Below, piece by piece: positions 9,093 through 29,531 of a DNA stretch of 32,000 bases (positions within the stretch are counted from its first letter, which is position 1; each line of letters begins with the position of its first letter). Under the pieces are notes generated by a model that saw only the letters and a program-made list of their open reading frames with translations, had not been told where the DNA came from and did no database searches. A program made the position numbers and the translations under genes. The stretch is from positions 90,001 through 122,000 of the forward strand of contig NC_009930.1 of assembly GCF_000018105.1 (NCBI RefSeq), written 5' to 3'. The DNA comes from Acaryochloris marina MBIC11017 (GTDB taxonomy: Bacteria; Cyanobacteriota; Cyanobacteriia; Thermosynechococcales; Thermosynechococcaceae).

Positions 9093-9101
9093 GGCTATTG
9101 A

Positions 9102-10973: not shown

Positions 10974-11030
10974 CTTGGCTGAGGGATAGGAGCTTCAGTA
11001 CACGATTAGGGGTTGAGAACGAAAAGAAGA

Positions 11031-11612: not shown

Positions 11613-11700
11613 AACTGGATTATTTCAATTTTGTGGATTAGCTTAGCGCAACTCAGCAAACTCCAGTTGATTTGACTAAGTTAGGGAGAGGATAGAGATT

Positions 11701-12042: not shown

Positions 12043-12048
12043 GTTTCC

Positions 12049-12384: not shown

Positions 12385-12435
12385 GACAAATAACTAACCC
12401 CAGCTTTTACCTTTGACTATTCTAAACAGTAGCTA

Positions 12436-12729: not shown

Positions 12730-12733
12730 GACA

Positions 12734-13261: not shown

Positions 13262-13327
13262 TATTGGACCGAGGGTTAAGGTTTAATACATCTGATCTAC
13301 TATGGACTTATGCGCTAACACACGCCC

Positions 13328-15161: not shown

Positions 15162-15463
15162 TTACATAATGGTGATAGTGGGCCAAACCAATATTCAGGT
15201 GTCCCTGGCTGCATAGACCTTGGGCTAGTAAACAGTAATGGGCAGTTACTATCATCGGCTTTCGAACTACTTGAACTTGATAGGACCAAAGCAGTTCATC
15301 CAAAGGTAATTAGACCCACGAAAATCATACAAATATTGCCAAATATATTCCTTACCCTATGATTCGTTTGAGCCTCTTTGACTGTTAGGTTTAATTTTCG
15401 GATTTTCTTAGTCATGATTAGTCATTTTTAAGATGATTAACAGATTCCCGGTAGAAACTGAAG

Positions 15464-16045
15464 TTAATTTTCCTGTCGCTGAAGCTCTGCCACATTATCC
15501 ATGGCCTTTCGTGCGATCAGCCTCCAATCCGTCCGATCATCCCACCGCTGAAAAATTCTCTGATTCCCCAACCAGACTGCACAAAAAAGAACTTTGTCAT
15601 CATCAGCGGGAACAGCCTCAATGGTGATCCGCTGTTTGAGTTGGTCTGGAGTCATACTTGAGATCGCAATCAGGAACCCCTTCGCAAAAGTCGAATCATA
15701 GCCCGCCTCCAAAGTACAGGGACGATGGGCCAACATCTTGAACCGCAGCTTATATGAAGTCTTTCCTCTGTATTCCTTGGGAACGAACTCGATACTGATC
15801 AGGTAACCTGTCAAAGCAGGTTGCTGTAGCTCAACAGGTTCAGAGTCTTTATCGAGGATATACCAAGTGCTTGTTTTGGAACGATTACAGAATATAGCCA
15901 AAGCCGATGGACTATCACCAAATCCCAGTGCCCTTTCATGGCTAGGATCTTGGGATTGGAATTGATATTGCTGTGATAAGGGTTGCAATACAGCTTTGGG
16001 CTGTGTTGATGGGGTTACTTTGTTTGTGTTTGTGTTTGTGTTCAT
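15464..16045 (-). CDS. hypothetical protein with N-terminal (Asn-Thr) repeat
   Basis: 193-aa ORF whose ATG overlaps the upstream stop (ATGA at 16042-16045). No family recognised. Confidence 0.55.
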   Translation of the reverse strand: MNTNTNTNKVTPSTQPKAVLQPLSQQYQFQSQDPSHERALGFGDSPSALAIFCNRSKTSTWYILDKDSEPVELQQPALTGYLISIEFVPKEYRGKTSYKLRFKMLAHRPCTLEAGYDSTFAKGFLIAISSMTPDQLKQRITIEAVPADDDKVLFCAVWLGNQRIFQRWDDRTDWRLIARKAMDNVAELQRQEN

Positions 16046-16302
16046 TTTTCAGGTTCCATAGGGATTTTGATAACTCTGTGCATTTGTTCAGCGAGACTCC
16101 AGCAGTGATCGCAAATTTCAGGGTAGTCATCATCAGCACCTTTACACCAGGGCTGAAGATAGCCACAGCACTGACACTCGTAGTACTGCCCAGGTTCACA
16201 TCCAGAGCAAAAGGACGGGCTGTGATTACTCAGGCACCCCAATGGCTTTAGTTGCAAGACACCTCGGCCTCTTTGAATGAAGTTCCACATTGCTCTATCC
16301 AT
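16042..16302 (-). CDS. Cys-rich small protein (putative zinc-binding)
   Basis: 86 aa with CSGC, CQCC, C and CDHC clusters. It overlaps both neighbours (8 nt upstream, 4 nt downstream), which suggests translational coupling. Confidence 0.5.
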   Translation of the reverse strand: MDRAMWNFIQRGRGVLQLKPLGCLSNHSPSFCSGCEPGQYYECQCCGYLQPWCKGADDDYPEICDHCWSLAEQMHRVIKIPMEPEK

Positions 16303-16678
16303 TGGTCAAATCCTCCAACTTCATCTGCCCAAACCATTCCTGCTTGGTGTAAGCATTGGCTTTTCGGAACGGCGCATCAAATTTCAAATGGCAGGGCGCA
16401 CAGAGGGCCTTGAGATTGTCTGGGTGATTGTTCTGGGGATCTTGGTCAAGGTGCGCCACTGTGAGAGTGAATCGCTGAGGCTTCTGTTCCTCCCCCTCTG
16501 AAGTGATCGGGAACCATTCAGGGTGGGTAATCATCAGCCAGAAAGCGAAGTGTAACCACTCAACCCCCGGTTTTCGACAGGGTTTGCCGCACTCAGTACA
16601 ACGCCAGTTGGCGTCTTCTTTGACTTGCAACGCAATCTCGTCCCAGTTATCGGGGTATCGTGCCCGAATCATCGGCAT
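16295..16678 (-). CDS. HNH endonuclease
   Basis: The start is trimmed to MPMIRARYPDNWDEI, where the ATG overlaps the upstream stop as TAATG at 16676-16680. The sequence has CTECG ... TVAHLDQDPQNNHPDNLKALCAPCH, i.e. the HNH core with flanking Cys pairs. Confidence 0.8.
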   Translation of the reverse strand: MPMIRARYPDNWDEIALQVKEDANWRCTECGKPCRKPGVEWLHFAFWLMITHPEWFPITSEGEEQKPQRFTLTVAHLDQDPQNNHPDNLKALCAPCHLKFDAPFRKANAYTKQEWFGQMKLEDLTNG

Positions 16679-17076
16679 TACAGAACCTCCAATGTTTGCT
16701 GCTCTGGGGCTGGATACTTCCATTCGAGATAGGACTTAATGCAACGCCCTGGATCATGGTCTGAGGTGACGAAGATGGTGAGGTCTGTCTTACTGCCCAA
16801 CTCTTCGAGACAGGCCAAGATTTCATCTCGACTAAAACCTTTGTATCGAGTGCTAATCAACACACCACACTGTTTAGCAATGCGCTTTGCAGCTCTCACA
16901 GGCTCTTTCTCGCACAGCACCACTTCATGAAGCCATTCCCGATAGGCGTTGTAACAAGGTTCGGCATCCTTTTCTGGGTGGAAGGGATGAAAGGGGCTGA
17001 CTAGGGGGGACTGGGCAATCCTGAAACCGGGCTGGGATTGGTTTGTACGAGTTGATTGAGTGATAGTGATATTCAT
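16678..17076 (-). CDS. hypothetical protein
   Basis: The start is trimmed to MNITITQ, which is preceded by GGAGGAATCGCC. 132 aa. A vague DUF4326-like pattern (SPFHPF...YREWL) is not supportable by eye. Confidence 0.5.
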   Translation of the reverse strand: MNITITQSTRTNQSQPGFRIAQSPLVSPFHPFHPEKDAEPCYNAYREWLHEVVLCEKEPVRAAKRIAKQCGVLISTRYKGFSRDEILACLEELGSKTDLTIFVTSDHDPGRCIKSYLEWKYPAPEQQTLEVL

Positions 17077-17108
17077 GGCGATTCCTCCAAATCTGTAGCG
17101 GTTGGGGA

Positions 17109-17441
17109 TTAGCAAGCAATAACGGTCATGTTCTCGGCCATCTCATGAGCAAGAGCGACCCTCAAACGTTGCTCATCCGTGAGTCCTGCATTGAATGCTT
17201 CTAAGACAGCCTCAGCGGCTTCCATCCTGCGAGAGTAGGGGCCGAAGAACTGATGTCTGAGAGTGGTGCCGACGTAATTGGATTGACGCTCGACAAAATT
17301 GATGTAGACATACCCGATCAACCGACTGCCATAGAAAACATTGAGCTTGCGGTCATTATCAGCAGTGGGTCTAGTGTGGAGTTCATAGGAAGGTAGATCA
17401 ATGCCATCAATAACTTGTTGGGGAAGAGTTGTATGATTCAT
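17109..17441 (-). CDS. hypothetical protein
   Basis: 110-aa ORF in the co-directional operon. No motif recognised. Confidence 0.5.
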   Translation of the reverse strand: MNHTTLPQQVIDGIDLPSYELHTRPTADNDRKLNVFYGSRLIGYVYINFVERQSNYVGTTLRHQFFGPYSRRMEAAEAVLEAFNAGLTDEQRLRVALAHEMAENMTVIAC

Positions 17442-17473
17442 TTTGAATAACCTCGTTGAATGGTTCGTTCAAT

Positions 17474-17516
17474 AAAAGGCATCGTTTGACTTGTCCCGAG
17501 CTTGGCGATGCCTTTT
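17474..17516 (-). terminator. stem-loop with U-tract (possible intrinsic terminator or attenuator inside the operon)
   Basis: On the minus strand the stop TAA runs into AAAAGGCAUCG-(21 nt)-CGAUGCCUUUU followed by AUU. The stem is 11 bp and the loop is large. Confidence 0.35.
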
Positions 17517-17895
17517 ACTGTTCTGAAACGAATGGCACCTCGTCATAACCGCCATGGGTCAGTGCCTCCAGCATCAACGCCGCTTCCATATGTTTGAGGG
17601 CATCGATATGTCGCCGCTCCGACCTCAGCGTCGTCGCCTCGGCCATTAGATAGGCGACACAATCACGGAAGCACTGGGCTTTCTGTCGGTCAAAAGGAAT
17701 CCGCTCAATCTCTGGTTCTAGCTGGGGCCAGACCGCTGGATTAAACAGTTTCTGGGCACCACTGAGTAATAATTCCTGGGATTGCATCAGGTTCTTAGCC
17801 GTCGCTACCGTCATGACTGCTACAGGAGAATAGGCCAAGTTAACCGTAGGCGGGTTGAGCAGAAATTCTGCCAAGTTAAGGTGATGAGCTTGCAT
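17515..17895 (-). CDS. hypothetical protein
   Basis: The track ORF 17515-18114 is trimmed to MQAHHLNL (ATG 17895), because the longer version overlaps the upstream gene that ends at 17996. 126 aa. Confidence 0.5.
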   Translation of the reverse strand: MQAHHLNLAEFLLNPPTVNLAYSPVAVMTVATAKNLMQSQELLLSGAQKLFNPAVWPQLEPEIERIPFDRQKAQCFRDCVAYLMAEATTLRSERRHIDALKHMEAALMLEALTHGGYDEVPFVSEQ

Positions 17896-17995
17896 GGGAT
17901 TTCTCCAAGAAGAAATAGGGATGAGGAAAGGCCAGCCCTGATGGTTGGGGGGATATCGCCACAGGGCTGACCCAGGTACAGACAGGGGGAGAGGG

Positions 17996-18634
17996 TTAAG
18001 CTGCTTTGCTAACCTGCTCAAGCAAATGGTTGTGTGCCCAGTCCCACCAAGAGCGACGTTCCCAGTTAATGGCTTTGATGTCTTGGCCTTTTGCTTCGTT
18101 GTAGAGGGGCACAATCACAGCGTCGAGGTCTTCAACCGCCCCAGGAGAAACCCCCGAGAGTTCATACACGGTATCGGCCAGAGATTCCAGTTCAGTTCGC
18201 TTAATGGCAAGTTGCTTAAAGAAGGTCTCCCAGCTATTGATGCGAGTGACCGTGAGTTGATCCATCAGTTCGTTTAGGGCAACGATCATCAAAATGTCTT
18301 GGCCTGCTACCTGCTTAAGCACTTTGAATACAGCCTCTTTTAGGGGAGAGCATTTGGCCTTATTGGTTTTTCGCTGTTCTAGTCCCGTCGCTTCCAGGGT
18401 TAGCAATCCGAAGAGTTCAAGGACATGATCCCGGTTTCGCAGATTGCGATTGCCATGGTGTAATTCCCAGGCAAACTTAGCCAGCTTGTCTTGTCCTGTG
18501 GGGTCATCAGGTTTGTACTGTTTGACGATGTATTTTTTGATGTTGACCTTCTCAGGCTTAGCAGGATCGATATGCTCTTTGATGGCCTTGGTTAGAGCGT
18601 TGCGAGTGGCGTTGTTGTCTAGAGTGGCGGTCAT
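17996..18634 (-). CDS. hypothetical protein
   Basis: The start is trimmed to MTATLDNNATR (ATG 18634), preceded by GGAGAAAATC. 212 aa, predicted helical. No family recognised. Confidence 0.55.
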   Translation of the reverse strand: MTATLDNNATRNALTKAIKEHIDPAKPEKVNIKKYIVKQYKPDDPTGQDKLAKFAWELHHGNRNLRNRDHVLELFGLLTLEATGLEQRKTNKAKCSPLKEAVFKVLKQVAGQDILMIVALNELMDQLTVTRINSWETFFKQLAIKRTELESLADTVYELSGVSPGAVEDLDAVIVPLYNEAKGQDIKAINWERRSWWDWAHNHLLEQVSKAA

Positions 18635-18695
18635 GATTTTCTCCAAAAAGTGAATGAGGTTTGAGTGGTTATAAGAAACGTAGGCAGATTGATCC

Positions 18696-19028
18696 TCAGC
18701 AGCAAATGAAGTCCTGATCATCAGCTTCAACATCTGAGCGCACGGAGTTCAGCAGCTCCACGGGGTAAGAGGGCTTGGGTTCGGGCTGGGTTGGTAGAGC
18801 GGCTAGGGCTGTATATCTCAAAGAAAAAAAGATATCTCTGGGGGTGGAATGTTGGAAGGTGTGGACATAGGGGTTAAGTGACAACCAAAGATCCAAAGCT
18901 TGGTCATCGGTCAAATCTTTGCTACCTAGCACCAGGCGGTTGAGAATTGCCGTCTGCTGGTCATGGAGTTCAATCGTTGTGGTGAACTGAACTTGTGGAA
19001 TGAGCTTGTATCTTGTTTTGGGTTTCAT
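18696..19028 (-). CDS. hypothetical protein
   Basis: The start is trimmed to MKPKTRYKLIP. 110 aa. Confidence 0.45.
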   Translation of the reverse strand: MKPKTRYKLIPQVQFTTTIELHDQQTAILNRLVLGSKDLTDDQALDLWLSLNPYVHTFQHSTPRDIFFSLRYTALAALPTQPEPKPSYPVELLNSVRSDVEADDQDFICC

Positions 19029-19204
19029 TGGTTTTTCCCCGTAGCGAATGGAATGAAGAAGGACAAGAACATGGCGAAGTAGATGGATTGCCAGAGCAAA
19101 AACCAAATGAGGGTGTAACCGTTCATCGTTGCCCCCTAAGTTTTCAAAATCTCTATGGAATCTGAACTGCTTGGATGATTAGTGGCTCACCCAGGCCAGG
19201 GAGA

Positions 19205-19582
19205 TTAATGCTCAGACGGCAGCAGCACAACGCCGTATTCCGCATACAGCTTGATTTCTGGCAGGACGAAATCAGTGAAAGGAATATCTTGGGTAATGAC
19301 AGGGCTGCAAGTACTGGGGCTGTCTTCGTAGCAGGCTAAGACAGCGCTATGGTCGTCGTTTACGGTCAGCAACCAAAGCTGGAATTCTTGGAGGTTGGGA
19401 TTGCACTTGATGAGTCGCACCCGTTGATAACTTGCGATCTCGTCGAGGAGCCAGAAACATTCCCCTTTCTCTGCGAGTGTTTTGACGCCTTCTGTGTATC
19501 GGATGCCCAGCCAATGCTGATAGTGAGATTCACTGCAATGACAATGAGCAAGTTCAGCCTGAAGCTCTGAAGCTGTGATCAT
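19205..19582 (-). CDS. DUF6876-like protein (family typical of plasmid/ICE regions)
   Basis: The start is trimmed to MITASELQ. The pattern HYQHWLGIRYTEGVKTLAEKGECFWLLDEIASYQ ... EFQLWLLTV ... IPFTDF ... LLPSEH matches my recollection of DUF6876 proteins (..WY.H....YTDG....A....A.WLLDEIA ... FQVW.L.V ... FTDF ... LPSE[HY] at the C-terminus). Confidence 0.6.
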   Translation of the reverse strand: MITASELQAELAHCHCSESHYQHWLGIRYTEGVKTLAEKGECFWLLDEIASYQRVRLIKCNPNLQEFQLWLLTVNDDHSAVLACYEDSPSTCSPVITQDIPFTDFVLPEIKLYAEYGVVLLPSEH

Positions 19583-19651
19583 GGTATTTAGCCCCTGTGT
19601 AGCGAGTGGGTATGTGTGGTGTGGGAGGGGCAAAGGTGCCCCAGGATACTT

Positions 19652-19954
19652 CTAGAATTCTTCGTTTTCGGCTTCAATCTGGCGAGTGGTGGGGATGGTG
19701 CGCCAATCAGCTAGCCAGTGGTCATCACCAAAGAAAGTCTTGACCCAGCTCTCTAGGCGAGGCTGGATCAGACCTGGCTTAGACTTGACGGGTGCATAGA
19801 CTTCAAATAAATCGCCACCCTCACGTACACCGGGGTATTTTTCAATCTGCATCTCGACTGCAATCACTTCAGGATGAAGGGGATCAGTGACTTGAGAGTC
19901 AACAAGCTGAAGCAGTTCAGTGACGGTGGTGGGTGCTTCGGTTAAAGTTGTCAT
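19652..19954 (-). CDS. hypothetical acidic protein (first gene of the minus-strand operon)
   Basis: 100-aa ORF directly downstream of the palindrome-rich control region. No motif recognised. Confidence 0.5.
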   Translation of the reverse strand: MTTLTEAPTTVTELLQLVDSQVTDPLHPEVIAVEMQIEKYPGVREGGDLFEVYAPVKSKPGLIQPRLESWVKTFFGDDHWLADWRTIPTTRQIEAENEEF

Positions 19955-19983
19955 AGTTATTGCCTTTGATTGGGTTTTAACTA

Positions 19984-20018
19984 GGGCATCCGAGAACTTA
20001 CCAGGCGACCGGATGCCT
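19984..20018. other. stem-loop GGCATCCG-(17 nt)-CGGATGCC followed by TTTGTTTG on the plus strand
   Basis: Read directly from the sequence: arms at 19985-19992 and 20010-20017. It lies in the 5' leader of the minus-strand operon, about 30 nt upstream of ATG 19954. On the plus strand it looks like a terminator against antisense read-through. Confidence 0.35.
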
Positions 20019-20041
20019 TTGTTTGTATGTAATAACTATAT

Positions 20042-20145
20042 CACACTGAGTGTGTAAAATTACACACTAAATAAAACTATAGACTTATTGCGTGTGTATA
20101 AAAAGTACACTATGATGCAAGTTGTCTAGCACTAATGCATCATAG
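20042..20145. promoter_or_regulatory. divergent control region with nested palindromes (candidate operators)
   Basis: CACACTgAGTGTG is at 20042-20054. It overlaps GTGTGTAAaaTTACACAC at 20050-20067. Further GTGTGTA and GTACAC half-sites lie at 20092-20110. A 10-bp-arm inverted repeat CTATGATGCA-(16 nt)-TGCATCATAG at 20110-20145 abuts the first ATG of the RHH ORF. Confidence 0.5.
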
Positions 20146-20169
20146 ATGTGTGGTGTTGGAATAGTTGCT

Positions 20170-20343
20170 ATGACGAATAAATCACGAATGACGCGAATTA
20201 ACATCACTGTCCCGGAAGATTTACTTGAAGAGTTCAAAGAATACTGTGACTCGCAAGTAAGATCTGTTTCTTCTCAAATTCAGTTTTTTATGAAACAGGC
20301 AGTTGAGTCTAATCAGAAACAGAAAGGGAATGAAAGTTCTTGA
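20170..20343 (+). CDS. ribbon-helix-helix (CopG/Arc/MetJ-type) DNA-binding protein
   Basis: TRINITVPEDLLEEFKEYCDSQVRSVSSQIQFFMKQAV is a classic RHH beta-strand plus two helices. The start is ambiguous (ATG at 20146, 20170 or 20188). Confidence 0.7.
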   Translation: MTNKSRMTRINITVPEDLLEEFKEYCDSQVRSVSSQIQFFMKQAVESNQKQKGNESS

Positions 20344-20391
20344 TGCTGCTGAATAATCAATAAAAGCAACTATTACCAAGTGGTGAGATAA

Positions 20392-20637
20392 ATGACCAAC
20401 AGCAACCCCCAACGATGGACCGATGATCGGCTTGATGCCCTCGCTGCCTCTACCCAAAGCTTGCTAGAAGCAACACAGGCTAATACTAAAGCTATCGGGG
20501 AAAATTCTGAACTCATGCAGAAAGTGATTGAAGGTCAGCTAGCCATGCAGACTTTACATGGTCAATTGGCAGAGCAGACTTTGCAGCTGAAGCGGGCTGT
20601 TGACTACTTGCTGAGCAAAGATGGAGGGCAATCATGA
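20392..20637 (+). CDS. hypothetical coiled-coil protein
   Basis: 81-aa ORF downstream of the RHH gene with a heptad-like Q/L-rich sequence. Confidence 0.45.
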   Translation: MTNSNPQRWTDDRLDALAASTQSLLEATQANTKAIGENSELMQKVIEGQLAMQTLHGQLAEQTLQLKRAVDYLLSKDGGQS

Positions 20638-20640
20638 TCA

Positions 20641-20865
20641 ATGGAATCTGAAGAGATTATCATCCGCTACTACCGCAATCCTATTCCTGTAATGGTCGAT
20701 CCTGGTCAGAATCATCCACGACATGAGCATGATTTATTACTAGGTTGGATTTGTCAGGGTAAGGATAGAAGCCCTGTACTCAAGAACTTCCCAAATGCTG
20801 AAATAGTTGCTAAGGCTAAGTCTGAGTCTGAGGCTAAGCCTTATCTAACCCTAGTAAAGCAATAG
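20641..20865 (+). CDS. hypothetical small protein
   Basis: 74-aa ORF whose ATG lies 3 nt after the previous stop. Its 3' end overlaps the convergent gene by 32 nt. Confidence 0.4.
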   Translation: MESEEIIIRYYRNPIPVMVDPGQNHPRHEHDLLLGWICQGKDRSPVLKNFPNAEIVAKAKSESEAKPYLTLVKQ

Positions 20866-21256
20866 TCTTCTTTATCCTGTCTTTCCCCGGTGCCCACTTA
20901 TCCCCGGCAGTAATCCTCAACACTTCCCCCCAAGCCTTAAGCTGATTTGCCCTCGATAGCTTCACCAATGGCCGAGCCGCACTCTCAGACTGAGGCAGCA
21001 CACTAAAATGCTCCTGCAAGAACAATACGAGTTCAGCAGCTTGAATACAGCGAAAAGCATGGATGTAAGTAACTCCAAGATTCTCTTCCACATAGACCTT
21101 GAATCCCTTGGAGTCTGGTAAATACAACTTGTTGTCTTGAATGACCTTTAATGCCAACCCAGAAGACAACAGAGCATCAGATCCAGTTTCAGTAGGTTCC
21201 AAAAATATTTCTTCCAGATCAGCCAAACTCTTATCCTGAAAATCGCGTAAATCCAT
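20834..21256 (-). CDS. hypothetical protein with ParB-associated HTH-like segment
   Basis: LYLPDSKGFKVYVEENLGVTYIHAFRCIQAAELV ... PQSESAARPLVKL resembles the segment (..F..YC.E.{W}G.S...AY.LI.AAEV ... NE.QARPL..L) that I recall downstream of ParB/Srx domains in plasmid and phage proteins. No ParB N-domain is present. Confidence 0.4.
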   Translation of the reverse strand: MDLRDFQDKSLADLEEIFLEPTETGSDALLSSGLALKVIQDNKLYLPDSKGFKVYVEENLGVTYIHAFRCIQAAELVLFLQEHFSVLPQSESAARPLVKLSRANQLKAWGEVLRITAGDKWAPGKDRIKKTIALLGLDKA

Positions 21257-21365
21257 CGCACCCAGAGTTTTAAGGTTTCAAAGCCAGGTGAATTATAGCA
21301 AGCCCTCCTTTGTCCGAAATCTTTACTAGGCAATATACAATCCATAGAGAAAGTGAGTTTTTCTC

Positions 21366-22694
21366 ATGACTAAATTAATCAGTAAATTAGTCTCAGCCAA
21401 GACCTCAGACCCCAAAGGCGACTCATCGGCTAAGGCCAAAATTGATACCGCTCCGCAACTCTCAGTTGAAGATATCTGGGATACCCTGGCAGACCGTGAC
21501 CTGTATCGACTCTCAATCGAAATTGATTCAGGCTTAAGACTCTCAGCCCGTCTAGATGCCGAAGATTTGGGCTTAGATCCTCATGTCGTTGATGAACTAG
21601 CGGGAGGCTACCGCAAAGCCTTCTCAGAGGCATTCACAAAGGCTCGAAATCAGCTCTCTGGCCTACAGAAAAAGTTCAATAAGAAATTCACCATCTACGT
21701 GAAGCCCTTCCGATTTATAGATGGCAGCATCATCAATGACGCCGTTGACTTTGCGCAGGAAATCAAGAATGAAGCGGCATCCTTACGCCAAGGCTTAGTG
21801 GATACCTACACAGATCAGCTCGAAACCTTCTTAGTGGAGCTGGAGCAGAAACTCAATGAAACAATACCCGGAAAAAAGAAGCAGATTGAAAAAGCCCTGA
21901 TTTACTATGCTGGAGAATTCCCCAGTATTGACGATTTTTCAGGTAGCCTCCAGGTGATTATCGATGGCCCGGTCCAGCTCACCTCCCTGAAAAATAAGCT
22001 CAAGGCCGATGCTGATTTGCAAGCTGAGTTAGCCAAAAAGAAACGGCTGACAGCTAAGCAAAAGAAAGAAGCTCAGGAGATTCAAGAGCGGATCAAAACC
22101 AGTCAGCTTATGCTCAATGGCATTGCTCAAGCAGTGCAACAGTCTCGTGTGGCTTGCCTGGATGAGGGCTGGGAACTGCTAGCTGACCTGATCGACCGCT
22201 TCGGTGCTAGCCCTGATGGGAAGCTCACAACCAAGGACCAGTCTGCGATTAACTCTACCTTTTCCCGACTGGAGCTACTAGAGAAGCACAACCCAGAGAT
22301 ATCAAAGCACTTGGCCGAGGCCCGGAAGCTGCATGAAGTGATGCAGGGCACTCCCACCCCAGAGCAGACCAAGGATGCCTATGATAAATTCTCTGCATTC
22401 CTTGCCAAGCAATCCAAGTCAGCGAGTGGTGAAGGGGCTGAGAAACTTCAGAAATCCCTTCAGTTTGCCAATGATTACAAAGCTTTGGTAAGCAGACTGG
22501 AGAAGCTGATCGAGACGCCCGATGCCGAAACATTGGCCGAACTAGAGGCAGGGCAACTCGCCAATATCGAAACCACGCTTACCCGCCGAGTGACGAACCT
22601 CAAACGCCTCACCAAGAAAGCCCAAGAGTCAGCCAAATATGCCAACGAACAGGCAGCAGCTCAAGGGGGAGTGGACCCCGTAGCAGGCTTCTAA
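21366..22694 (+). CDS. helical/coiled-coil protein, possibly DUF3150-like (first gene of the ATPase/VWA module)
   Basis: 442-aa ORF, Lys/Glu/Ala/Leu-rich with long heptad-like stretches. The N-terminal third (YRLSIEIDSGLRLSARLDAEDLGLDPHVVDELAGGYRKAFSEAF...) recalls the DUF3150 pattern (hS.s.W.G...L...DLGL). The assignment is unverified. Confidence 0.55.
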   Translation: MTKLISKLVSAKTSDPKGDSSAKAKIDTAPQLSVEDIWDTLADRDLYRLSIEIDSGLRLSARLDAEDLGLDPHVVDELAGGYRKAFSEAFTKARNQLSGLQKKFNKKFTIYVKPFRFIDGSIINDAVDFAQEIKNEAASLRQGLVDTYTDQLETFLVELEQKLNETIPGKKKQIEKALIYYAGEFPSIDDFSGSLQVIIDGPVQLTSLKNKLKADADLQAELAKKKRLTAKQKKEAQEIQERIKTSQLMLNGIAQAVQQSRVACLDEGWELLADLIDRFGASPDGKLTTKDQSAINSTFSRLELLEKHNPEISKHLAEARKLHEVMQGTPTPEQTKDAYDKFSAFLAKQSKSASGEGAEKLQKSLQFANDYKALVSRLEKLIETPDAETLAELEAGQLANIETTLTRRVTNLKRLTKKAQESAKYANEQAAAQGGVDPVAGF

Positions 22695-22778
22695 AGCTGG
22701 AAATACTTTCAATAACTGTAAGGAATTTATATTACCTAGGCTATCTAGATTCTGTAGAGAAATCAAAAATATAAGCTG

Positions 22779-23936
22779 ATGAAACCTCTTCAACTCAAGC
22801 TTCAGACGCTACGAAAAGAACTCAACGCCGCTCACCTGGAACGCAAGTCTGTGATTGATGGCTTGCTGGCTACATTACTGGCAAACCAAAACGCCTTGCT
22901 GTATGGGCCTCCGGGAACTGGGAAAAGTTTGATTTTGAGAGAGATATGCTCTGCGATCGCAGATGCGAACTTCTTCCAGCGCTTGCTTCACAAGGCCATG
23001 TCCCCCGATGAAGTCCTAGGGCAAATCAGTCTTAAAGCCTTGGAACAAGACATCATGAAGCGCAACACCAACGGCAGGCTTCAAGAGGCTCACTTGGCCT
23101 TTCTGGATGAAGTCTTTAGAGGCAATGGGGTACTGCTCAATAGCTTGCTGGAATTGATGAACGAGCGCACCTACGACAACCCAGATAAGCAGAAAAGCCC
23201 CCTCCGCTCGATAGTCGGTGCAACGAACTCGATTGATTCTGGGAGTGATTTGGAAGCCTTTGCCGATAGATTCATTTATCGACCCTGGATCTTTGATCTG
23301 AAGACCCCCAGCTCTACTAAAAAGCTATTGAGCTGGACAATCAACGGTAATCGTCCCCAGGTGAGCCAAGGGTTGATTACATTGGCTGAACTCGATCAGA
23401 TGTGTGCTGAAGCCCAACGGGTGAAAATCACCAGTGGAATGGTGGATGCATTCACTGAGATGATTCACAACTTGATCCGGGATGGCTTTGTGATTAGTGC
23501 CCGCCGACGAGTGAAACTGCTGCAACTGGTTCAGTGTTATGCCTACGTCCAAGGCGATGAGCAAGTTTATCTAGAGCATGTGCATGAGCTATTACCCCAG
23601 TGCTGTTGGAAATCCAAGATAGAGGAAATCAGAGAAATCAAGAAGCTGATTGAAACCACAGCACCCATCGCGAAAAAGAAATTAGCGGATATTGTCAAAG
23701 CCGCTCAGGGTGAAGTATCAAGGCTAGAAGAGAAACTGAATGATCCACGATTAGGCCATACTGATCATGTCTATGCTGCTGACTTTGCCAGAACACAGCT
23801 CAGCAACTTATCGAACAGCTTGAATAAGGTTCAGGCTGATTTATGCAGGAATGGGGCCAGCCAAAGAACTAAAGCAGAAGCTGATTTGAAGGCGAAAGCC
23901 CAGCGAGTCAGTGAACTAGTTGAAGGCTTATATTGA
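22779..23936 (+). CDS. MoxR/RavA-type AAA+ ATPase with coiled-coil C-terminal tail
   Basis: Walker A is LLYGPPGTGKS, Walker B is AHLAFLDEVF, followed by NSLLELMNERTY, sensor-1 VGATN and EAFADRFIYRPWI. The order and spacing match E. coli RavA (LLGPPGIAKS ... IVFLDEIWKA ... LLTAINER ... DR). The last ~110 aa are helical. Confidence 0.85.
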   Translation: MKPLQLKLQTLRKELNAAHLERKSVIDGLLATLLANQNALLYGPPGTGKSLILREICSAIADANFFQRLLHKAMSPDEVLGQISLKALEQDIMKRNTNGRLQEAHLAFLDEVFRGNGVLLNSLLELMNERTYDNPDKQKSPLRSIVGATNSIDSGSDLEAFADRFIYRPWIFDLKTPSSTKKLLSWTINGNRPQVSQGLITLAELDQMCAEAQRVKITSGMVDAFTEMIHNLIRDGFVISARRRVKLLQLVQCYAYVQGDEQVYLEHVHELLPQCCWKSKIEEIREIKKLIETTAPIAKKKLADIVKAAQGEVSRLEEKLNDPRLGHTDHVYAADFARTQLSNLSNSLNKVQADLCRNGASQRTKAEADLKAKAQRVSELVEGLY

Positions 23937-23937
23937 T

Positions 23938-25386
23938 ATGTTCACCCAGCTCAAGGCAGAACTCACCCCCATCACCACCGAAGTCAGCGAAACCTCAAAG
24001 CTGTTTTGGCAAGACTATCTCAACTCAAATCCTACAATGGTGGAGGTGACCCAGGACACGAATATCAAAACCCTCAATCGTTTTGCCCTGGAAGTCTTTC
24101 ATCGGTTGTATTACTCCCCCATACCGGAATGGCTACCGGAGAAACCAGAACATCAATGGGCGCGAGTGTTGCACAACCAGCTCAGTGAATCTGAAGAGTT
24201 CCAAAATCTAACCCTGACTTGTACGGGCGATCCGTTAGGTTCTGCCATCGCTGCCCAATCCATGATCACCAATCTGTACCGACAGCTTGAAGAGGCCAGC
24301 GACGATCTGGAGATAGACGAACTCGACACCCTTAGAGCTAAGGCCCGCCGCGCCAAAATGGAGGGTGATGAGGAGCTATTCAAGGAACTCCAAGCCCAAG
24401 GGCAGGCCATGTCCCAAGCAGCACAAACCTTTGCTCAAAATTTGGAAGGCATGGAAGGTGAAGGCATTGGTGAGAGCGTTGAGGATGCTGAGGGGAATGT
24501 ACAGGAGAAGAAAGACGAGCTGGAAGCCTTGGGGATGAGCTGGGGAAATGAGCCAGGTGACCGCAACCCCACACCCACCGGAGAGAAGCTAAAGCTTGCG
24601 GCTTTGATTGAACAGCGGCCACAACTCAAGAAGATACTAGCCCTCGCTGGAAATGCCTTGGAGACAGCCAACCGCAAACGCCGACAGCACCAGTCCGAGA
24701 CGGGATATGGTGAGTTAGTGGGGATTACCACGGGGAATGATGTGGCTCAAGTCCTGCCTCAAGAGTTGGCAAGGCTTTCAGATTCCAGACAGAAACTGAG
24801 TTTTTATCGAGACTTTCTAGAAGGTCAGTTGTTTCAGAATGACTTACAGGCCCCAGAGGAGAAGGGGAAAGGTCCGATGGTGATTTGCCTGGATTGCTCT
24901 GGATCGATGGTTAAGGGCAATCGTTTTCTCTGGTCAAAAGCCCTGATCGTTGCGTTGGTGAAGTTGGCCCATGAGCAGGATCGGGTGGTTTCGCTGGTAT
25001 TGTTTGAGTCTGTTTGTTACGACCCTATCTATTTCCATCCCAGAGAGGACATTGACCAGCTGATCCGATTGCTGGTTACGAGTCCCACGGATGGAGGGAC
25101 AGAGTTTCAAAGACCACTGGAAACAGCCAGGGACATCATTGAGCAGGACAACAACTACAGCGAGGCCGATATTGTCTTTATCACGGATGGGATTGCGCCT
25201 TTGAGTTCCACTTTTGTTCAAGAGTACTCAAATTCCCTACAGAATTTGAAAACGGATTTCTTTTTGCTAGAAATTGAACCGAAACAGGGATGGTCAAGCG
25301 AACTCAGGACGTTGGCGAGTCAGTCTTGGGCAATTGATGCGGATGGAAATTTTGAGGAATTGGGGGCTGTGTTTACGGCTTGTTAG
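23938..25386 (+). CDS. VWA-domain protein (ViaA/CobT-like) with complete MIDAS motif
   Basis: The ATG at 23938 lies 1 nt after the ATPase stop (TGA t ATG); the track's TTG start at 23920 is less likely. The C-terminal VWA reads MVICLDCSGSM ... TDGGTEF ... IVFITDGIA (DxSxS, T, D). The N-terminal ~300 aa are acidic and helical, with LPQELARLSD...FYRDFLEGQL resembling ViaA-type linkers. Confidence 0.85.
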   Translation: MFTQLKAELTPITTEVSETSKLFWQDYLNSNPTMVEVTQDTNIKTLNRFALEVFHRLYYSPIPEWLPEKPEHQWARVLHNQLSESEEFQNLTLTCTGDPLGSAIAAQSMITNLYRQLEEASDDLEIDELDTLRAKARRAKMEGDEELFKELQAQGQAMSQAAQTFAQNLEGMEGEGIGESVEDAEGNVQEKKDELEALGMSWGNEPGDRNPTPTGEKLKLAALIEQRPQLKKILALAGNALETANRKRRQHQSETGYGELVGITTGNDVAQVLPQELARLSDSRQKLSFYRDFLEGQLFQNDLQAPEEKGKGPMVICLDCSGSMVKGNRFLWSKALIVALVKLAHEQDRVVSLVLFESVCYDPIYFHPREDIDQLIRLLVTSPTDGGTEFQRPLETARDIIEQDNNYSEADIVFITDGIAPLSSTFVQEYSNSLQNLKTDFFLLEIEPKQGWSSELRTLASQSWAIDADGNFEELGAVFTAC

Positions 25387-25503
25387 CGAGTGTACGGAGT
25401 CAGAAGTAGTAGGTGGTTGAGATGGCTGAGGTTTTGGGTGAGGCAGCGTAATCTTTTGATTTGCATTGGAAAGCAGATTACCAAGAGGCCGTTAGGTAAT
25501 CCG

Positions 25504-25905
25504 CTATTCAGCTTTTTCTTGAATAGAGATAACCCTGTACATAGCACTTAGGGGTGATGATACAAGAGTTGCACAAATGGCAACCACCCAAGGGTTAATT
25601 AGGACTGCTGGCCTAATCACAATTGCGGTCAGGACATAGCCCCAACCAACTACGCTTGCTGTCCACGAGAGCCAGGTGATCCATCGAATCAGATGGCGTA
25701 CTATAGTTGCCTTTCTGAGTCTGATTACGACCTTTCGTTGGACTTGCGCGTATAACATGAAAGCAAAACTTAGAAAGGCGAGAGCCCCCAACGCGAAAGC
25801 TACTTCATTGGAGCCCAAGCTATATCTTGGCATTGAGTCGTCTCCGCTAGACAAATAAAGCAGACTTTTGATAGCTATTGTTAGCCACACGGACCAAAAT
25901 GGCAA
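25504..25905 (-). CDS. small integral membrane protein
   Basis: Three hydrophobic segments (AFALGALAFLSFAFMLYA, ITWLSWTASVVGWGYVLTAIVI, PWVVAICATLVSSPL). The first codon is TTG, and ATG at 25833 (MPRYSLG) is an alternative start. Confidence 0.5.
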   Translation of the reverse strand: MPFWSVWLTIAIKSLLYLSSGDDSMPRYSLGSNEVAFALGALAFLSFAFMLYAQVQRKVVIRLRKATIVRHLIRWITWLSWTASVVGWGYVLTAIVIRPAVLINPWVVAICATLVSSPLSAMYRVISIQEKAE

Positions 25906-26037
25906 AGAGTATCACCGCTAGTTTGAACAGCACGACTCTTGAAATTGTCTTGTTTAGCTTGCTCACCTCATCTAGGGAATCTTAAAAGGTAGAAATCAAG
26001 ATTACACCTTCTGGCAGTTAAGGGAGATGCCTGAAAG

Positions 26038-26421
26038 GTGGTTTTTGACCATCACACTCTACCTCACCCGATAATTTTAATGGACGCAGATTTTGACTTA
26101 GACTCCCTATATCAGCAGCTTCAGGATGAAGATGTCATTGAGTTAACCATCCTTGACGGAGACTTGGCTCCCGGTCAAACAGCCGAAATTACCGTTGCCA
26201 GTAAGTGGCTGACCAGATATCACCTTTATCTATTTTTTGAGCATCACTCACAGAGCTTCGACTTGGCAGGGGTCAAAGAGGGAGCCAGTAAGACAAAGGT
26301 GAATTTAATCATTGACCACATGGATGCCATCAGCTCGGAGAAAGCTTATATCTTTACCTATGGCAGTGAAACGTCTTGGAGTATTCAACTGGTGCAGTGG
26401 AAGAAACTCACTAGGGCTTAA
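26038..26421 (+). CDS. hypothetical protein
   Basis: 127-aa ORF with a GTG start; an alternative ATG gives MDADFDLD. No motif recognised. Confidence 0.4.
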   Translation: MVFDHHTLPHPIILMDADFDLDSLYQQLQDEDVIELTILDGDLAPGQTAEITVASKWLTRYHLYLFFEHHSQSFDLAGVKEGASKTKVNLIIDHMDAISSEKAYIFTYGSETSWSIQLVQWKKLTRA

Positions 26422-26493
26422 GACTTTGAGTAGAAGTTGAGTGTTGGTAAACCCCGAATCAATACACTTGGACAAGACAAGTGAGATTCAACC

Positions 26494-26907
26494 ATGACTC
26501 AGATTCCATCCCTGACTCACCAACAGCTAGAGCTGCTGAGAATAGCCAAGAAGAATACTGTGGGAGAACTACGGCTTTCCTATGAGTATCCAGTGCTCGA
26601 TGACAATGAACCTCAGATCGGCCATCCACCGTTCATCCAAGAATTGATTGATCACCATTTCATCCATGTGCAAGTCAAAGAAACTTCTCTACGTGCTTCA
26701 GAGTTTCAGCAAGAAAATTGGATAGAGCACTGTGATGGGATTGACTATCCCCACCAAGCCGATTGGGACCGATGGCGGCAGGGATTCATCACCCAATTAA
26801 GTGAAGAGATTGAGAGCCTGATGATTCCAGGGAAAAATCTAGGACAATTCACGCAGGTGTGGATCCGTGAGATTAGCGTTCGAGCAGTTCAGCCTAGTAG
26901 TTTGTGA
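26494..26907 (+). CDS. hypothetical protein, paralogue of the partial ORF at 31829-32000
   Basis: 137-aa ORF. The first 57 aa are ~70% identical to the ORF at the window end. Positions 26620-26663 match 31955-31998 at 43 of 44 nt. Confidence 0.55.
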   Translation: MTQIPSLTHQQLELLRIAKKNTVGELRLSYEYPVLDDNEPQIGHPPFIQELIDHHFIHVQVKETSLRASEFQQENWIEHCDGIDYPHQADWDRWRQGFITQLSEEIESLMIPGKNLGQFTQVWIREISVRAVQPSSL

Positions 26908-27138
26908 GTTGGGGTTGTTGCTGAAAGTGCACTGCACCTAGTGAAGAATGGGTCTTCGATGGCCAAAGGTCGGTCGGAGACCTTCGTACAGGCAATCCGA
27001 TATTAAACCATTGAAACTTGGCTAGATAGAAACGACCAAAAGTTAAGGTTTTAGAGATGCTGCTATGGTTGGAGACTTTGGTTGATGAAAAACACGAAAC
27101 TCCTTTACTTAACTGGTGGCTACATTCGAGGACATCAG

Positions 27139-27402
27139 TTATCGATGGAGATGACGAACAATCGCTCCAAGTTGGTGCATTTTAGGGTTAATTTCTGTGG
27201 GAACCCCATGCGGAAGTTGCTCGCTAGTTTCAGAGTGACAGGCTTGCCAAGCCTTATACATCCCATTAACTGCAACATCTAAGGGAACTTGCCCAAGGGT
27301 CTCATGGTGGTGATGCTTAAGACTGATTACTAATTGATTACGCAACTTATGTTTCTCTTTAAATTTATCTTTTAGTAGAGGATTTCTATTGATATCTGCC
27401 AT
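27139..27402 (-). CDS. hypothetical small His-rich protein
   Basis: The start is trimmed to MADINRNPLL. The ORF is AT-rich and isolated, so support is weak. Confidence 0.3.
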   Translation of the reverse strand: MADINRNPLLKDKFKEKHKLRNQLVISLKHHHHETLGQVPLDVAVNGMYKAWQACHSETSEQLPHGVPTEINPKMHQLGAIVRHLHR

Positions 27403-27667
27403 GAATGCCCTCCTCACACATTTCACTTGATGGCGATAGATTATCAAAGACTTTTATTCAATGAAAGTATCGACAACGCCAAATCATGAAGTATAAGAAT
27501 ATCTTCAGGATCTGCTAGAATCATAAATTCAGATAATTATCTTCAAATGAATAATATTGATTCAAACCTGGCTGGACCTGTCCATGGGTTGTTGATTGAC
27601 ATTTGCGATGTTCAAGTCAACCGTGTGGAATACTTGGTTATAGAGATGGCGAAGTAACTGGGAGGAT

Positions 27668-27916
27668 ATGACTATGCCCAGTAATACTGAATCGATCAAA
27701 GGCATAGCCTTAACTGAAAAACCCGCTAGCATTTCAAGGTGTGGTATGTCTTATGCGAAGTTTGCCCAACATCGAGCCTCCAAAAGGTGGTACCAACTTT
27801 CTAGCCAGGGGAAAAACCTTGGTTCACCTATCGAATTTGATTTTTATAAGCAAGATTCCCCAAACCGTCCAAATAGACGCACAAGTGTTGAGACTAGAGA
27901 ATTAACAGGCGTTTAG
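27668..27916 (+). CDS. hypothetical small protein
   Basis: 82-aa ORF preceded by GGGAGGAT. No motif recognised. Confidence 0.3.
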   Translation: MTMPSNTESIKGIALTEKPASISRCGMSYAKFAQHRASKRWYQLSSQGKNLGSPIEFDFYKQDSPNRPNRRTSVETRELTGV

Positions 27917-28090
27917 AGTATTTTTCATAATAGTCAATATTTCCTGATTAATGCATTAAATTCCTAGATAAAGCTCCAGTATCTGACTATACACTTAGTA
28001 TTTTACTGGCATTATCTATTGGTATCAAAGAATAGCAATATGCCATGATTAACCCATTCAGGTGATATTTCATGAGGAAAATATTAACTT

Positions 28091-28483
28091 ATGCCTAGGA
28101 AGAGAAAACAGTCTAAACCCATAACAGGTAAAGATTTGGTTGCAAAAGTAAAACAATTGGGTGATTTGACCCGTGAAGAGAAGGCAAAAGCTTGTGGTTA
28201 TTATTCGACGGATAAAGATGGCTCGGAACGGATCAAGCTCATGGCGTTCCTGAATGCGCTGTTGGATGCAGAAGGGATTAACTTAGATAGTCACTCCTCC
28301 AGTGGCAATGGTAATGGCAGAGGAGGGCGAAAAGCGAGCTATCGGGTCAGCGTACAATCCAATGGAAATTTGCTGTTGGGGAGCGCCTATACCAAAGAAC
28401 TGGATGTTAAGCCTGGGGATGAGTTTGAAATCTCTTTAGGTCGGAAGCATATTCATTTGAACAAGGTTGCCGAACCCAGTTGA
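28091..28483 (+). CDS. cyanobacterial AbrB-like (cyAbrB) transcriptional regulator
   Basis: The SpoVT/AbrB fold is at the C-terminus (NGNLLLGSAYTKELDVKPGDEFEISLGRKHIHL). The N-terminal KDLVAKVKQLGDLTREEKAKACGYY segment completes the architecture typical of cyAbrB (CalA/CalB-type) proteins. Confidence 0.8.
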   Translation: MPRKRKQSKPITGKDLVAKVKQLGDLTREEKAKACGYYSTDKDGSERIKLMAFLNALLDAEGINLDSHSSSGNGNGRGGRKASYRVSVQSNGNLLLGSAYTKELDVKPGDEFEISLGRKHIHLNKVAEPS

Positions 28484-28724
28484 GGGAAAAGCACTGGTCT
28501 CTTAGCAGGATCAAATAAGGTCAAAACCATTTAGTGATATCGGCTTCTGGGTGGTTGATGAGAAAAGATTCAAATGCCTATTAAATAAGGGCAACGGAAC
28601 TATAGATCCTCTTAAGAGATCAGCGCTGCAGAATATGCTCCATACTTTAAGAAATACGAATAAGCTATTCCATTTCTCCGGTAGGTGGGGTATTCCTCTA
28701 GCAAAGGTGTTTGGGGATTTAAAT

Positions 28725-29531
28725 ATGGCGACTCAGAACGACAGCGTTCAAGCCTATTTGAAGGAGATGGGCCGTTACCCACTCCTCTCCCATGAAGAAG
28801 AAATCAGACTGGCTCGACAGGTTAAAGCTGGTGATCTCAAAGCCAAACAACGGATGATTGAGTGTAATCTGCGCCTGGTGGTTTCCATTGCCAAGAAGCA
28901 TCAGCATCTCGGTTTACCCCTAATGGACCTAATCCAAGAGGGGAGTATTGGCCTCAATACCGCCGTTGACAAGTTTGACTTAGCTCAAGGCTGTAAGTTC
29001 AGCACCTATGCCTATTGGTGGATTTCAGAGGCGATTAAGCGGGCGTTGAAATCCCAGTCCCGCACGATCTATATCCCTATTCATCAATGGGAACGCGCCC
29101 ACAGGATCAAGAAGGCTGTTCGCCAATTAACGCAAGAGAAAGGGCGTACTCCCACCCTCAAAGAACTCTCAGCAGCGACTGGCATAAAGTCTTCACTGAT
29201 TCGGAATACCCTGCAATCATTCCAAGCGATTTCTTCCCTCGATCAGCCCGTGGGTCCTGAACAGAAGGATGCTCTTATTGATTTAATCCAAACAGAAGAC
29301 GCTGCTCTCTCGATCATGGATGGGCTAGAAATTGAAGATGCTCTAACCCGATGCATGGCCTACTTAACTGAGCGGGAGAGATTCATCGTTGATCAGCGGT
29401 ATGGATTAACGGATGGTCAGCCCAAGTCAATGGGAGCCATTGGCAAACCAATTGGCATTAGCCGAGAGCGAGTCAGGCAAATCCTCAATATCGCCATGAA
29501 GAAGATGACTAGGCAAGTTCGTTCTGCTTAG
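28725..29531 (+). CDS. sigma-70 family RNA polymerase sigma factor (regions 2-4, short group 2/3-like)
   Basis: The start is trimmed to [30 protein letters not shown]. Region 2 reads [18 protein letters not shown]...[17 protein letters not shown]. Region 4.2 reads [23 protein letters not shown]. Confidence 0.9.

Follow-up and report, generated by a model that had tools for sequence, protein, structure and literature searches.

Within a stretch of 32,000 nucleotides (nt) of Acaryochloris marina MBIC11017 (contig NC_009930.1, positions 90,001 to 122,000 of the forward strand; hereafter the window) lies a run of three genes, at 21366-25386, which is the subject of the analysis described here. 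In the list of open reading frames (ORFs), gene 1 (21366-22694, +) encodes a DUF3150-like protein of 442 amino acids (aa), gene 2 (22779-23936, +) a RavA-like, MoxR-class AAA+ ATPase of 385 aa, and gene 3 (ATG at 23938 to 25386, +; earliest in-frame start TTG at 23920) a protein of 482 aa with a von Willebrand factor A (VWA) domain. Genes 1 and 2 are spaced by 84 nt, and the ATG of gene 3 stands 1 nt past the stop codon of gene 2, the junction reading ...TAT TGA T ATG TTC.... A preliminary description of this DNA had reported the three co-directional genes, this junction and a set of ATPase and VWA motifs, all of which were found in place. The genes are real and not chance ORFs, since they give bpMoxR, AAA_5 and VWA_2 matches and each has full-length homologues of equal length on other plasmids. 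They constitute one operon on an Acaryochloris-type plasmid, with no terminator-like sites found on the + strand inside the module. The operon promoter is presumed to lie in the intergenic region 5' of gene 1 (21257-21365), which is shared with a divergent ORF; a simple sigma-70 scan finds no consensus promoter there, such that this placement follows from the gene arrangement only. The 4-kb module as a whole has counterparts with 80-92% nucleotide identity on six Acaryochloris plasmids, of which four are typed as conjugative and two as mobilizable, and a MOBF relaxase is present in all three of those inspected closely. The window is syntenic over 15409-29530 with the Acaryochloris plasmid pREC4, the pREC4 segment being 94.5% identical, and several diverged copies of the trio occur on different plasmids within one strain.

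The second gene is the most readily placed of the three. Its product matches the Pfam models bpMoxR (E 5.4e-40), AAA_5 (E 1e-20) and AAA_lid_8 (E 3.6e-5), and contains GPPGTGKS at residue 43, AFLDEVF at 107, VGATN at 146 and ADRF at 162; among seven aligned relatives the Walker A and Walker B motifs, the sensor-1 residue N150 and R164 are invariant. As these catalytic motifs are invariant, the protein is apparently an active ATPase. The best NCBIfam match is RavA (NF010054), at 121.3 bits against a cut-off of 681 and covering RavA residues 10-298 of 498, and the nearest solved structure in the PDB is the AAA+ module of Escherichia coli RavA (residues 12-287, 106 bits). Since the RavA match ends at about residue 290, gene 2 is without the triple-helical and LARA domains of RavA. 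It has in their place a C-terminal helical tail of some 95 aa (residues ~290-385) which is unrelated to RavA and which phage relatives share. The match to phrog_19600, annotated only as 'ATPase', reaches 247 bits. No CbbQ_C domain is detected by Pfam, and BLAST similarity to the IncC homologue of Vcrx089 (E 0.024) is limited to the P-loop region. By its sequence, gene 2 is to be classed as a RavA-like MoxR AAA+ ATPase and not as a RavA orthologue, in keeping with what the preliminary description had proposed for it.

Gene 3 likewise bears out its earlier description as a ViaA-like VWA protein. It matches VWA_2 in Pfam (E 5.3e-11), with DCSGSM at residue 319, TDGGT at 384 and ITDG at 415, and all 37 homologues compared retain the residues of the metal-ion-dependent adhesion site (MIDAS), D319, S321, S323, T388 and D417. 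ViaA (NF008230) is its best NCBIfam match, although it scores 80.6 bits where the cut-off asks for 500 and covers gene 3 residues 219-439 only; phrog_24053, of unknown function, gives 117 bits. An AlphaFold2 model with a predicted local distance difference test (pLDDT) score of 80 comprises an all-helical N-terminal domain (18-250), a short beta linker and the VWA domain (311-481). Fold matches in the PDB are confined to the VWA domain, the N-terminal helical domain being without any; within the latter, residues 100-215 are 22% D+E. Pfam finds neither CobT nor CobT_C domains in gene 3, unlike in the IncC VWA protein, to which gene 3 has no BLAST similarity. Gene 3 is a ViaA-like VWA/MIDAS co-factor of gene 2.

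Gene 1 is more difficult to place. Its product has no significant match in Pfam, NCBIfam, PADLOC or PHROG and none to the DUF3150 model PF11348 at E <= 1, the gathering score of which is 24.9 bits; by comparison, a canonical IncC DUF3150 protein scores 305 bits. Three distant relatives of gene 1 do give weak DUF3150 matches (17.9 and 20.9 bits for the two examined; best E 1.4e-5). The family is rare, an HMMER search run exhaustively through 1.84 billion representative proteins having yielded 39 relatives at E <= 1e-3, and its matches on plasmids are cyanobacterial without exception. In a word-indexed homologue search gene 1 returned only proteins at least 82% identical to it, and an alignment of 32 sequences as query gave nothing further. 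Sequence-profile and fold searches of the PDB produced nothing significant, only coiled-coil noise.

The relationship to DUF3150 emerges from profile and fold comparison. When the 32-sequence gene 1 family is aligned by hhalign with five canonical DUF3150 proteins, a match of 95.6% probability is obtained (E 1.2e-8, 226 columns), in which gene 1 residues 39-327 pair with DUF3150 residues 5-243; a narrower gene 1 alignment of 14 sequences gives 42% and E 2.6e-4, and comparison with a single DUF3150 sequence E 0.1. The hidden Markov model of the gene 1 family also matches a Providencia DUF3150 protein directly (E 2.5e-6). The AlphaFold2 model of gene 1 (pLDDT 79, predicted template-modelling score 0.67; tail unstructured and of low confidence) finds as its top Foldseek match in BFVD a phage protein annotated as DUF3150 domain-containing, A0A6J7WV52 (E 4.7e-7, probability 1.0, template-modelling score 0.54 on the target), and five more phage proteins match at E <= 1e-4. 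On profile alignment and predicted fold, then, the gene 1 product is a remote homologue of DUF3150, and it is called DUF3150-like and not a member because the Pfam threshold is not reached. The earlier assignment to DUF3150 is upheld to this extent, by hhalign and Foldseek and without a Pfam match; its restriction of the likeness to the N-terminal third of the protein is not, as the likeness spans residues ~39-327 and is interrupted by a coiled-coil hairpin. The build of the protein is accordingly elaborate: a disordered N-terminus, in which one short helix is conserved, is followed by an alpha/beta and helical core (~34-330), broken by the inserted hairpin at ~205-263, and then by a C-terminal helical extension of ~110 aa and a flexible tail.

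It is the end of this tail that provides the main new observation of the analysis, namely that the tails of gene 1 relatives differ with the partner ATPase set. Gene 1 itself ends ...DPVAGF, in which G441 and F442 are invariant and D437 nearly so, with a position occupied mostly by Ala between. The MoxR-linked relatives all end [Y/F/W]-D-x-x-[A/V]-G-F-COOH, P0088 having G for D; short relatives whose partners are a classic AAA ATPase and DUF1257/DUF2997 proteins end GH[KR]ALAxW...; and canonical DUF3150 proteins, linked to CobS-like and CobT-like proteins, have an aromatic C-terminal residue in six of six cases, preceded in three of the six by an acidic stretch. This dependence on the partner set suggests that the tail may serve as a docking peptide. 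As pure speculation, the D-x-x-A-G-F-COOH ending of gene 1 is also loosely like the C-terminal tip of SSB (...DDIPF-COOH in the SSB of pMB04).

The trio, or partial copies of it, recurs on plasmid-like elements, with gene 1 identities of 27-37%. Beyond the window, at least eight other loci link the gene 1 family to an AAA_5 ATPase and a VWA protein; the profile scan of genome contigs with the MoxR alignment gives a minimum. Co-conservation of the three genes, which had been proposed as a check, extends across Acaryochloris, Chroococcidiopsis, an Oligoflexus metagenome-assembled genome (MAG) and metagenomes. On a metagenomic plasmid-like contig (loci L008-L010) the trio has ParA/McdB, toxin-antitoxin pairs and a relaxase nearby; on Chroococcidiopsis plasmids (L011, L015) a HigBA pair is placed between the ATPase and VWA genes; on an Oligoflexus MAG contig (L029) the trio adjoins a KfrA_N protein and a DUF5906 primase-like protein; and partial copies are found at L027 and L028, the latter near ParA. 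The HigB/HigA pairs (L011, 4633-5281; L015, 10614-10934) sit on the strand opposite the MoxR and VWA genes. At L006 (5911-9455), which is part of a 528-kb contig, MoxR is reduced to its lid part (154 aa) beside an intact VWA gene, and a 491-aa ORF on the opposite strand occupies the expected place of the remaining ATPase and gene 1. No gene 1 relative was found beside phage or longer bacterial bpMoxR-VWA pairs, even at relaxed thresholds for the phage pairs, and the third component is consequently specific to the plasmid-borne subclade.

Canonical DUF3150 proteins are far more widespread, with matches on 1125 plasmid records, 973 of these typed as conjugative. In a sample comprising pAR060302 (IncC), a Pseudomonas plasmid, Vibrio p123, a Providencia plasmid, Proteus pJPM24 and one IMG/VR viral contig, all five plasmids and the viral contig combine the DUF3150 gene with genes for an AAA_5+CbbQ_C ATPase and for a VWA protein of the CobT-like type, which confirms the linkage to CobS-like ATPases and CobT-like VWA proteins that the preliminary description had stated. 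The three genes are contiguous, or nearly so, in five of the six elements, the IncC ATPase lying upstream of ssb-bet-exo; ssb-recT/bet-exo adjoins the module in four of the five plasmids, and in Proteus pJPM24 the trio stands directly 5' of traF, traH and traG. When a canonical DUF3150 protein was searched against a phage collection by tblastn, the sole match was a Salmonella record filed there. At 23628-24158 of the pAR060302 locus (L021), ssb as annotated encodes nine residues, MRLHHLAGG, beyond the terminal ...DDDIPF, which would bury the canonical C-terminal tip.

It is this region of IncC plasmids for which a function has been described. On pVCR94 (IncC), Vcrx089, a CobS-like ATPase, and Vcrx090, a domain-less protein, give protection from type I restriction, acting in the recipient, and ssb, bet and exo repair Cas-induced breaks (PMC7498323). 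The gene next past exo, vcrx094, is on the same transcript, the reverse transcription polymerase chain reaction primer that demonstrated the operon lying within vcrx094 (PMC7498323). The anti-restriction effect of vcrx089-090 has been confirmed against EcoKI and EcoBI (PMC11602122), and AntiDefenseFinder lists the pair (PMC11724313). The IncC reference used here is pAR060302, such that vcrx094 and vcrx095 are equated with the DUF3150 and VWA genes by pAR060302 synteny only.

The IncC-type module, found on IncC, IncT-like and other conjugative plasmids and in SXT/R391 elements, contains the same three-part set as the trio. Both are plasmid-borne and co-directional with the VWA domain C-terminal in its protein, and the DUF3150 protein and gene 1 are homologous and have in common an aromatic last residue on a poorly conserved tail. 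The differences are, however, considerable: the ATPase is RavA-like (AAA_lid_8) in the trio and CobS/CbbQ-like in the IncC type; the VWA protein is ViaA-like in the one and CobT-like in the other; the trio's gene order of DUF3150-like, ATPase, VWA is not that of the IncC type; gene 1 has the inserted coiled-coil and the ~110-aa helical extension, unlike IncC-type DUF3150; and the trio is cyanobacterial, whereas the IncC type is found in gammaproteobacteria on MOBH plasmids, IncC among them, and on a plasmid of Pseudomonas. The trio is therefore tied by homology to the host-defence-evasion (hde) region of IncC plasmids through gene 1 alone, as gene 2 is related to its IncC counterpart through the P-loop only and gene 3 is unmatched. 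The trio is, in other words, a cyanobacterial variant of a mobile-element AAA_5 ATPase/DUF3150/VWA module.

Comparison with other MoxR-VWA systems further delimits the trio. In E. coli, ravA and viaA are adjacent genes with the ATPase first, an arrangement which the trio shares; RavA is the nearest relative of the gene 2 AAA+ module in both sequence and structure, and gene 3 resembles ViaA over the VWA domain and the ~95 residues N-terminal to it. The trio differs from RavA-ViaA in that its scores fall below the orthologue cut-offs, it is without LARA, it is plasmid-borne and it has a conserved third partner. A variable third component is a feature of the MoxR-vWA pairs described by Kaur et al. 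2020, of which two classes, VMAP and iSTAND, are often met with in cyanobacteria (PMC7159879). With these ternary systems the trio shares a MoxR-vWA core, a best match of gene 2 to bpMoxR and one conserved third protein; the latter is, however, DUF3150-like and not of the VMAP, iSTAND, FtsH or beta-propeller type, no effector or adaptor domains are recognised in gene 1 or gene 3, and gene 2 has the standard GPPGTGKS Walker A in contrast to the GxxxTAKS variant of some such systems (PMC7159879). Gene 1 was considered as a VMAP-type third component and this was rejected, as VMAP, iSTAND and propeller models match neither gene 1 nor 30 of its relatives.

Pairs of related proteins are also encoded by phages, among them gp147/146 of Aphanizomenon phage CL131, gp66/gp63 of Bacillus phage 0305phi8-36 and those of Moorella phage MTATph1. 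Their ATPases belong to the same subfamily as gene 2, the C-terminal helical tail included, with 28-29% identity over the alignment and 34-35% by tblastn over residues 7-277, and their VWA partners are detected with gene 3 by phmmer. They differ from the trio in being located among replication genes, adjoining DnaN, RecQ or ribonucleotide reductase, and in having no gene 1 or DUF3150 neighbour. In phage CL131, gp148 (L003, 758-1600), directly 5' of the pair, has an LPD29 domain (E 7e-22), which hints that this phage pair, too, has a mobile-element-specific partner. A different arrangement is seen in Nostoc sp. C052 pC052_F (L016, 7848-11661) and at L012 and L013, where a DUF3150-like gene is followed by one or more genes for DUF1257/DUF2997 proteins and then by a classic AAA (PF00004) ATPase of ~530-560 aa, on cyanobacterial plasmid-like DNA. 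The short DUF3150-like proteins share the family of gene 1 (profile E 1e-9 to 1e-8) and have an AAA+ ATPase 3' of them, but the ATPase is of another class, no VWA protein is present, and the proteins are shorter and end in another C-terminal motif. This DUF1257/DUF2997/classic AAA module appears to be uncharacterised.

As for what the trio does, a part in plasmid establishment or counter-defence is, on the present comparative analysis, the most likely role. That the role would be exercised through a DNA-targeting complex of the host, for instance a restriction enzyme, is suggested by the protection from type I restriction that the CobS-like ATPase and vcrx090 of the IncC hde region confer. The pairs from which a mechanism can be sketched are CbbQ-CbbO, Rea1/midasin and RavA-ViaA. 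By analogy, the MIDAS site of the VWA protein would take hold of a target or partner at an acidic residue, and the ATPase hexamer, driven by ATP, would exert a pull on the complex so bound or remodel it. The DUF3150-like gene 1 product may act as a specificity or adaptor subunit, docking through its flexible C-terminal ...D-x-x-A-G-F-COOH, and the target would be a host DNA-targeting complex encountered at plasmid entry. The model in this form is based on known MoxR-VWA pairs (PMC7159879) and, for the target, on the IncC precedent. The best explanation of the whole is a MoxR/VWA/DUF3150-like machine that aids plasmid establishment and counters defence by disabling such a complex, a proposal which is put forward tentatively as a real possibility that falls short of being probable. 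The preliminary description had likewise proposed a role in establishment, defence or counter-defence; the IncC ATPase-vcrx090 precedent makes establishment and counter-defence more plausible for the trio. It had also named a match to an already characterised system as grounds for setting its proposal aside; the trio matches none, such that the proposal stands in this respect.

Several observations weigh against the proposed role in counter-defence. The docking role of the tail is drawn from the tail pattern only. The relatedness of gene 2 to vcrx089 is confined to the P-loop and that of gene 3 to the IncC VWA protein is beyond the reach of BLAST; no phenotype has been reported for the IncC counterpart of gene 1 or for the IncC VWA protein; and the published anti-restriction phenotype was complemented by vcrx089-090 alone (PMC7498323). 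No homologues of ssb, bet, exo, vcrx090 or ArdC are present in the window, IncC vcrx090 having been sought by tblastn. PADLOC, which had been suggested as a check, returns on the window only P-loop and coiled-coil noise and nothing meaningful for the trio. The relaxase of pREC4 lies ~25 kb from the trio and is disrupted, and copies of the trio are often decayed, with gene 1 truncated in pMB04, the VWA gene split in S15 and the MoxR gene interrupted at L006. This decay signifies dispensability, which is compatible with several roles.

Four other explanations bear comparison with a counter-defence machine. It seems unlikely that the trio is a plasmid-borne defence, that is, a MoxR-vWA ternary NTP (nucleoside triphosphate)-dependent conflict system with gene 1 as sensor or scaffold and the ATPase-VWA pair setting the threshold at which phage would trigger an abortive or containment response. 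The top Pfam model of gene 2, bpMoxR, was indeed defined from MoxR-vWA-beta-propeller ternary systems, cyanobacteria often have variable third components of the VMAP and iSTAND classes (PMC7159879), and neighbours on the plasmids include NACHT, caspase-WD40, CHAT-TPR and nSTAND-Mrr proteins as well as toxin-antitoxin pairs. Yet an effector domain is neither fused to gene 1 or gene 3 nor encoded alongside them, the VMAP, iSTAND and propeller models leave gene 1 and its 30 relatives unmatched, and the PADLOC noise tells against this explanation also; moreover, gene 1 is homologous to DUF3150, a neighbour of recombination and anti-restriction genes on conjugative plasmids, and the related ATPase-VWA pairs of phages are found in replication modules. 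The last of these points, the adjacency of phage relatives of genes 2 and 3 to DnaN, RecQ or ribonucleotide reductase, would fit with an accessory function in plasmid maintenance or replication, in which the pair remodels a replication, partition or recombination complex (initiator, clamp, SSB or RecA filament) and gene 1 is a KfrA-like coiled-coil scaffold. So would the ParA/McdB, ParA and KfrA_N plus DUF5906 neighbours at L008, L028 and L029, respectively, the flanking of ssb-recT/bet-exo by the canonical DUF3150 module, the RecA and several nucleases encoded 5' of the trio in the window and the loose likeness between the SSB tip ...DDIPF-COOH and the end of gene 1. That likeness is short, however; Pfam and NCBIfam detect a DNA-binding domain in none of the three proteins; the sole KfrA_N match, in one distant gene 1 relative (E 0.0095), is not significant; and the truncated and split copies occur on plasmids that persist, from which it follows that the trio is non-essential for maintenance. 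A maintenance function is for these reasons judged improbable.

Assembly of a conjugative pilus, type IV secretion system or virion, with the trio as chaperone, has a precedent in the MoxR-VWA proteins proposed for tail development in Acidianus two-tailed virus; archaeal spindle viruses have related MoxR ATPases, MoxR-vWA pairs have been put forward as chaperones of virion assembly in a review of jumbo phages (PMC7824862), and the canonical trio of Proteus pJPM24 is directly 5' of traF, traH and traG. It is nonetheless very unlikely, given that transfer and structural genes are absent near the trio in the window and at L008, L011 and L029, and that the phage relatives are in replication and not structural modules. 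There remains the case of a housekeeping RavA-ViaA or CobS-CobT (cobaltochelatase) pair brought onto the plasmid by chance, against which the preliminary description had argued. RavA and ViaA are the top NCBIfam matches, and RavA the nearest solved structure, but the scores (121 against 681 bits for RavA, 80.6 against 500 for ViaA) are far below the cut-offs, the match to RavA ends at residue ~290 with the triple-helical and LARA domains missing, and there are no CbbQ_C or CobT domains. In addition, no cobalamin, lysine decarboxylase or respiratory genes are nearby in the window, and several diverged copies are carried on different plasmids of one strain. On scores, domains and plasmid context, this last explanation is rejected as barely credible.

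The surroundings of the trio in the window are those of a plasmid. Immediately 5', the divergent 140-aa ORF (20834-21256, -) has no family match and is possibly a local regulator; only in Acaryochloris plasmids does it adjoin gene 1, the more distant trio loci being without it, and its inclusion in the module was rejected on the basis of this limited conservation. Immediately 3', a 'membrane protein' noted in the preliminary description corresponds to an ORF at 25504-25905 (-), which does exist but to which no annotated gene of the near-identical pREC4 segment corresponds, and which may not be a gene; it, too, was rejected as part of the module. Upstream of the divergent ORF, 15409-19990 (-) holds ~10 small ORFs, the only recognisable families being DUF6876 (19205-19633) and one ribbon-helix-helix protein. 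This small-ORF cassette, called anti-defence-like in the preliminary description and at most a candidate leading-region or anti-defence cassette, is kept as a block beside the trio on several Acaryochloris plasmids, and in related ones ssb (pMB04) and ArdC (S15) adjoin the same conserved block, which speaks for the proposed role of the trio in counter-defence; in pMB04, ssb and a gene for an ATP-binding protein precede the cassette. Further 5', 6074-14116 is a dense plasmid cluster of DNA repair and nuclease genes, encoding an AlkZ-like glycosylase (6074-7273, -), a RecA paralogue (7697-8770, -), a ribonuclease with RNB and dsRBD domains (9102-10973, -), a GIY-YIG protein (11031-11612, -), a double DUF1508 protein (11701-12042, +), an SNase (12701-13261, +) and a Cas4-like PD-(D/E)XK nuclease (13328-14116, +); the recA and RNB genes recur as a pair on other Acaryochloris plasmids. 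Downstream of the trio, a 137-aa ORFan region (26494-26907, +) matches three separate sites of the pREC4 segment at 71-95% identity and is therefore part of a repeated gene family on Acaryochloris plasmids. It is followed at 28091-29531 (+) by genes for an AbrB-like regulator and for a sigma-70 family factor, complete with regions 1.2, 2, 3 and 4, both of which are kept 3' of the trio in pREC4, where a second sigma factor is encoded elsewhere. An IS630 transposase is also encoded in the window.

A broader proposition can be drawn from the variation of the tails, namely that DUF3150-fold proteins may be general AAA+ adaptors on mobile elements, equipped with partner-specific C-terminal docking peptides, which together with their ATPase would strip or inactivate host restriction or DNA-targeting complexes on incoming plasmid or phage DNA. 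The docking peptides would then be AGF-COOH for RavA-like MoxR with VWA, the aromatic end for CobS-like ATPases with CobT-like VWA, and GH[KR]ALAxW for DUF1257/DUF2997 with classic AAA. Both the general proposition and this allocation of the peptides are doubtful at present. If true, they would describe an enzymatic, remodelling type of anti-defence, of which the activity of vcrx089-090 would be one visible part.

What gives these considerations their wider relevance is that DUF3150, in the literature searched, is essentially without mention save for a single one in passing, and yet matches to it occur on more than 1100 sequenced plasmids. Its carriers are mostly conjugative multidrug-resistance plasmids, on which it stands beside an ATPase shown to defeat type I restriction. 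The analysis connects a rare cyanobacterial trio, a widespread IncC/SXT-type module and a third, cyanobacterial variant with a classic AAA ATPase, the common theme of which is a DUF3150-fold protein with an AAA+ motor. Should the link to anti-restriction be false, the trio would still be a well-delimited, conserved plasmid module; should it be true, it would explain a motor protein as an anti-defence factor and would offer a new target against the spread of plasmids.

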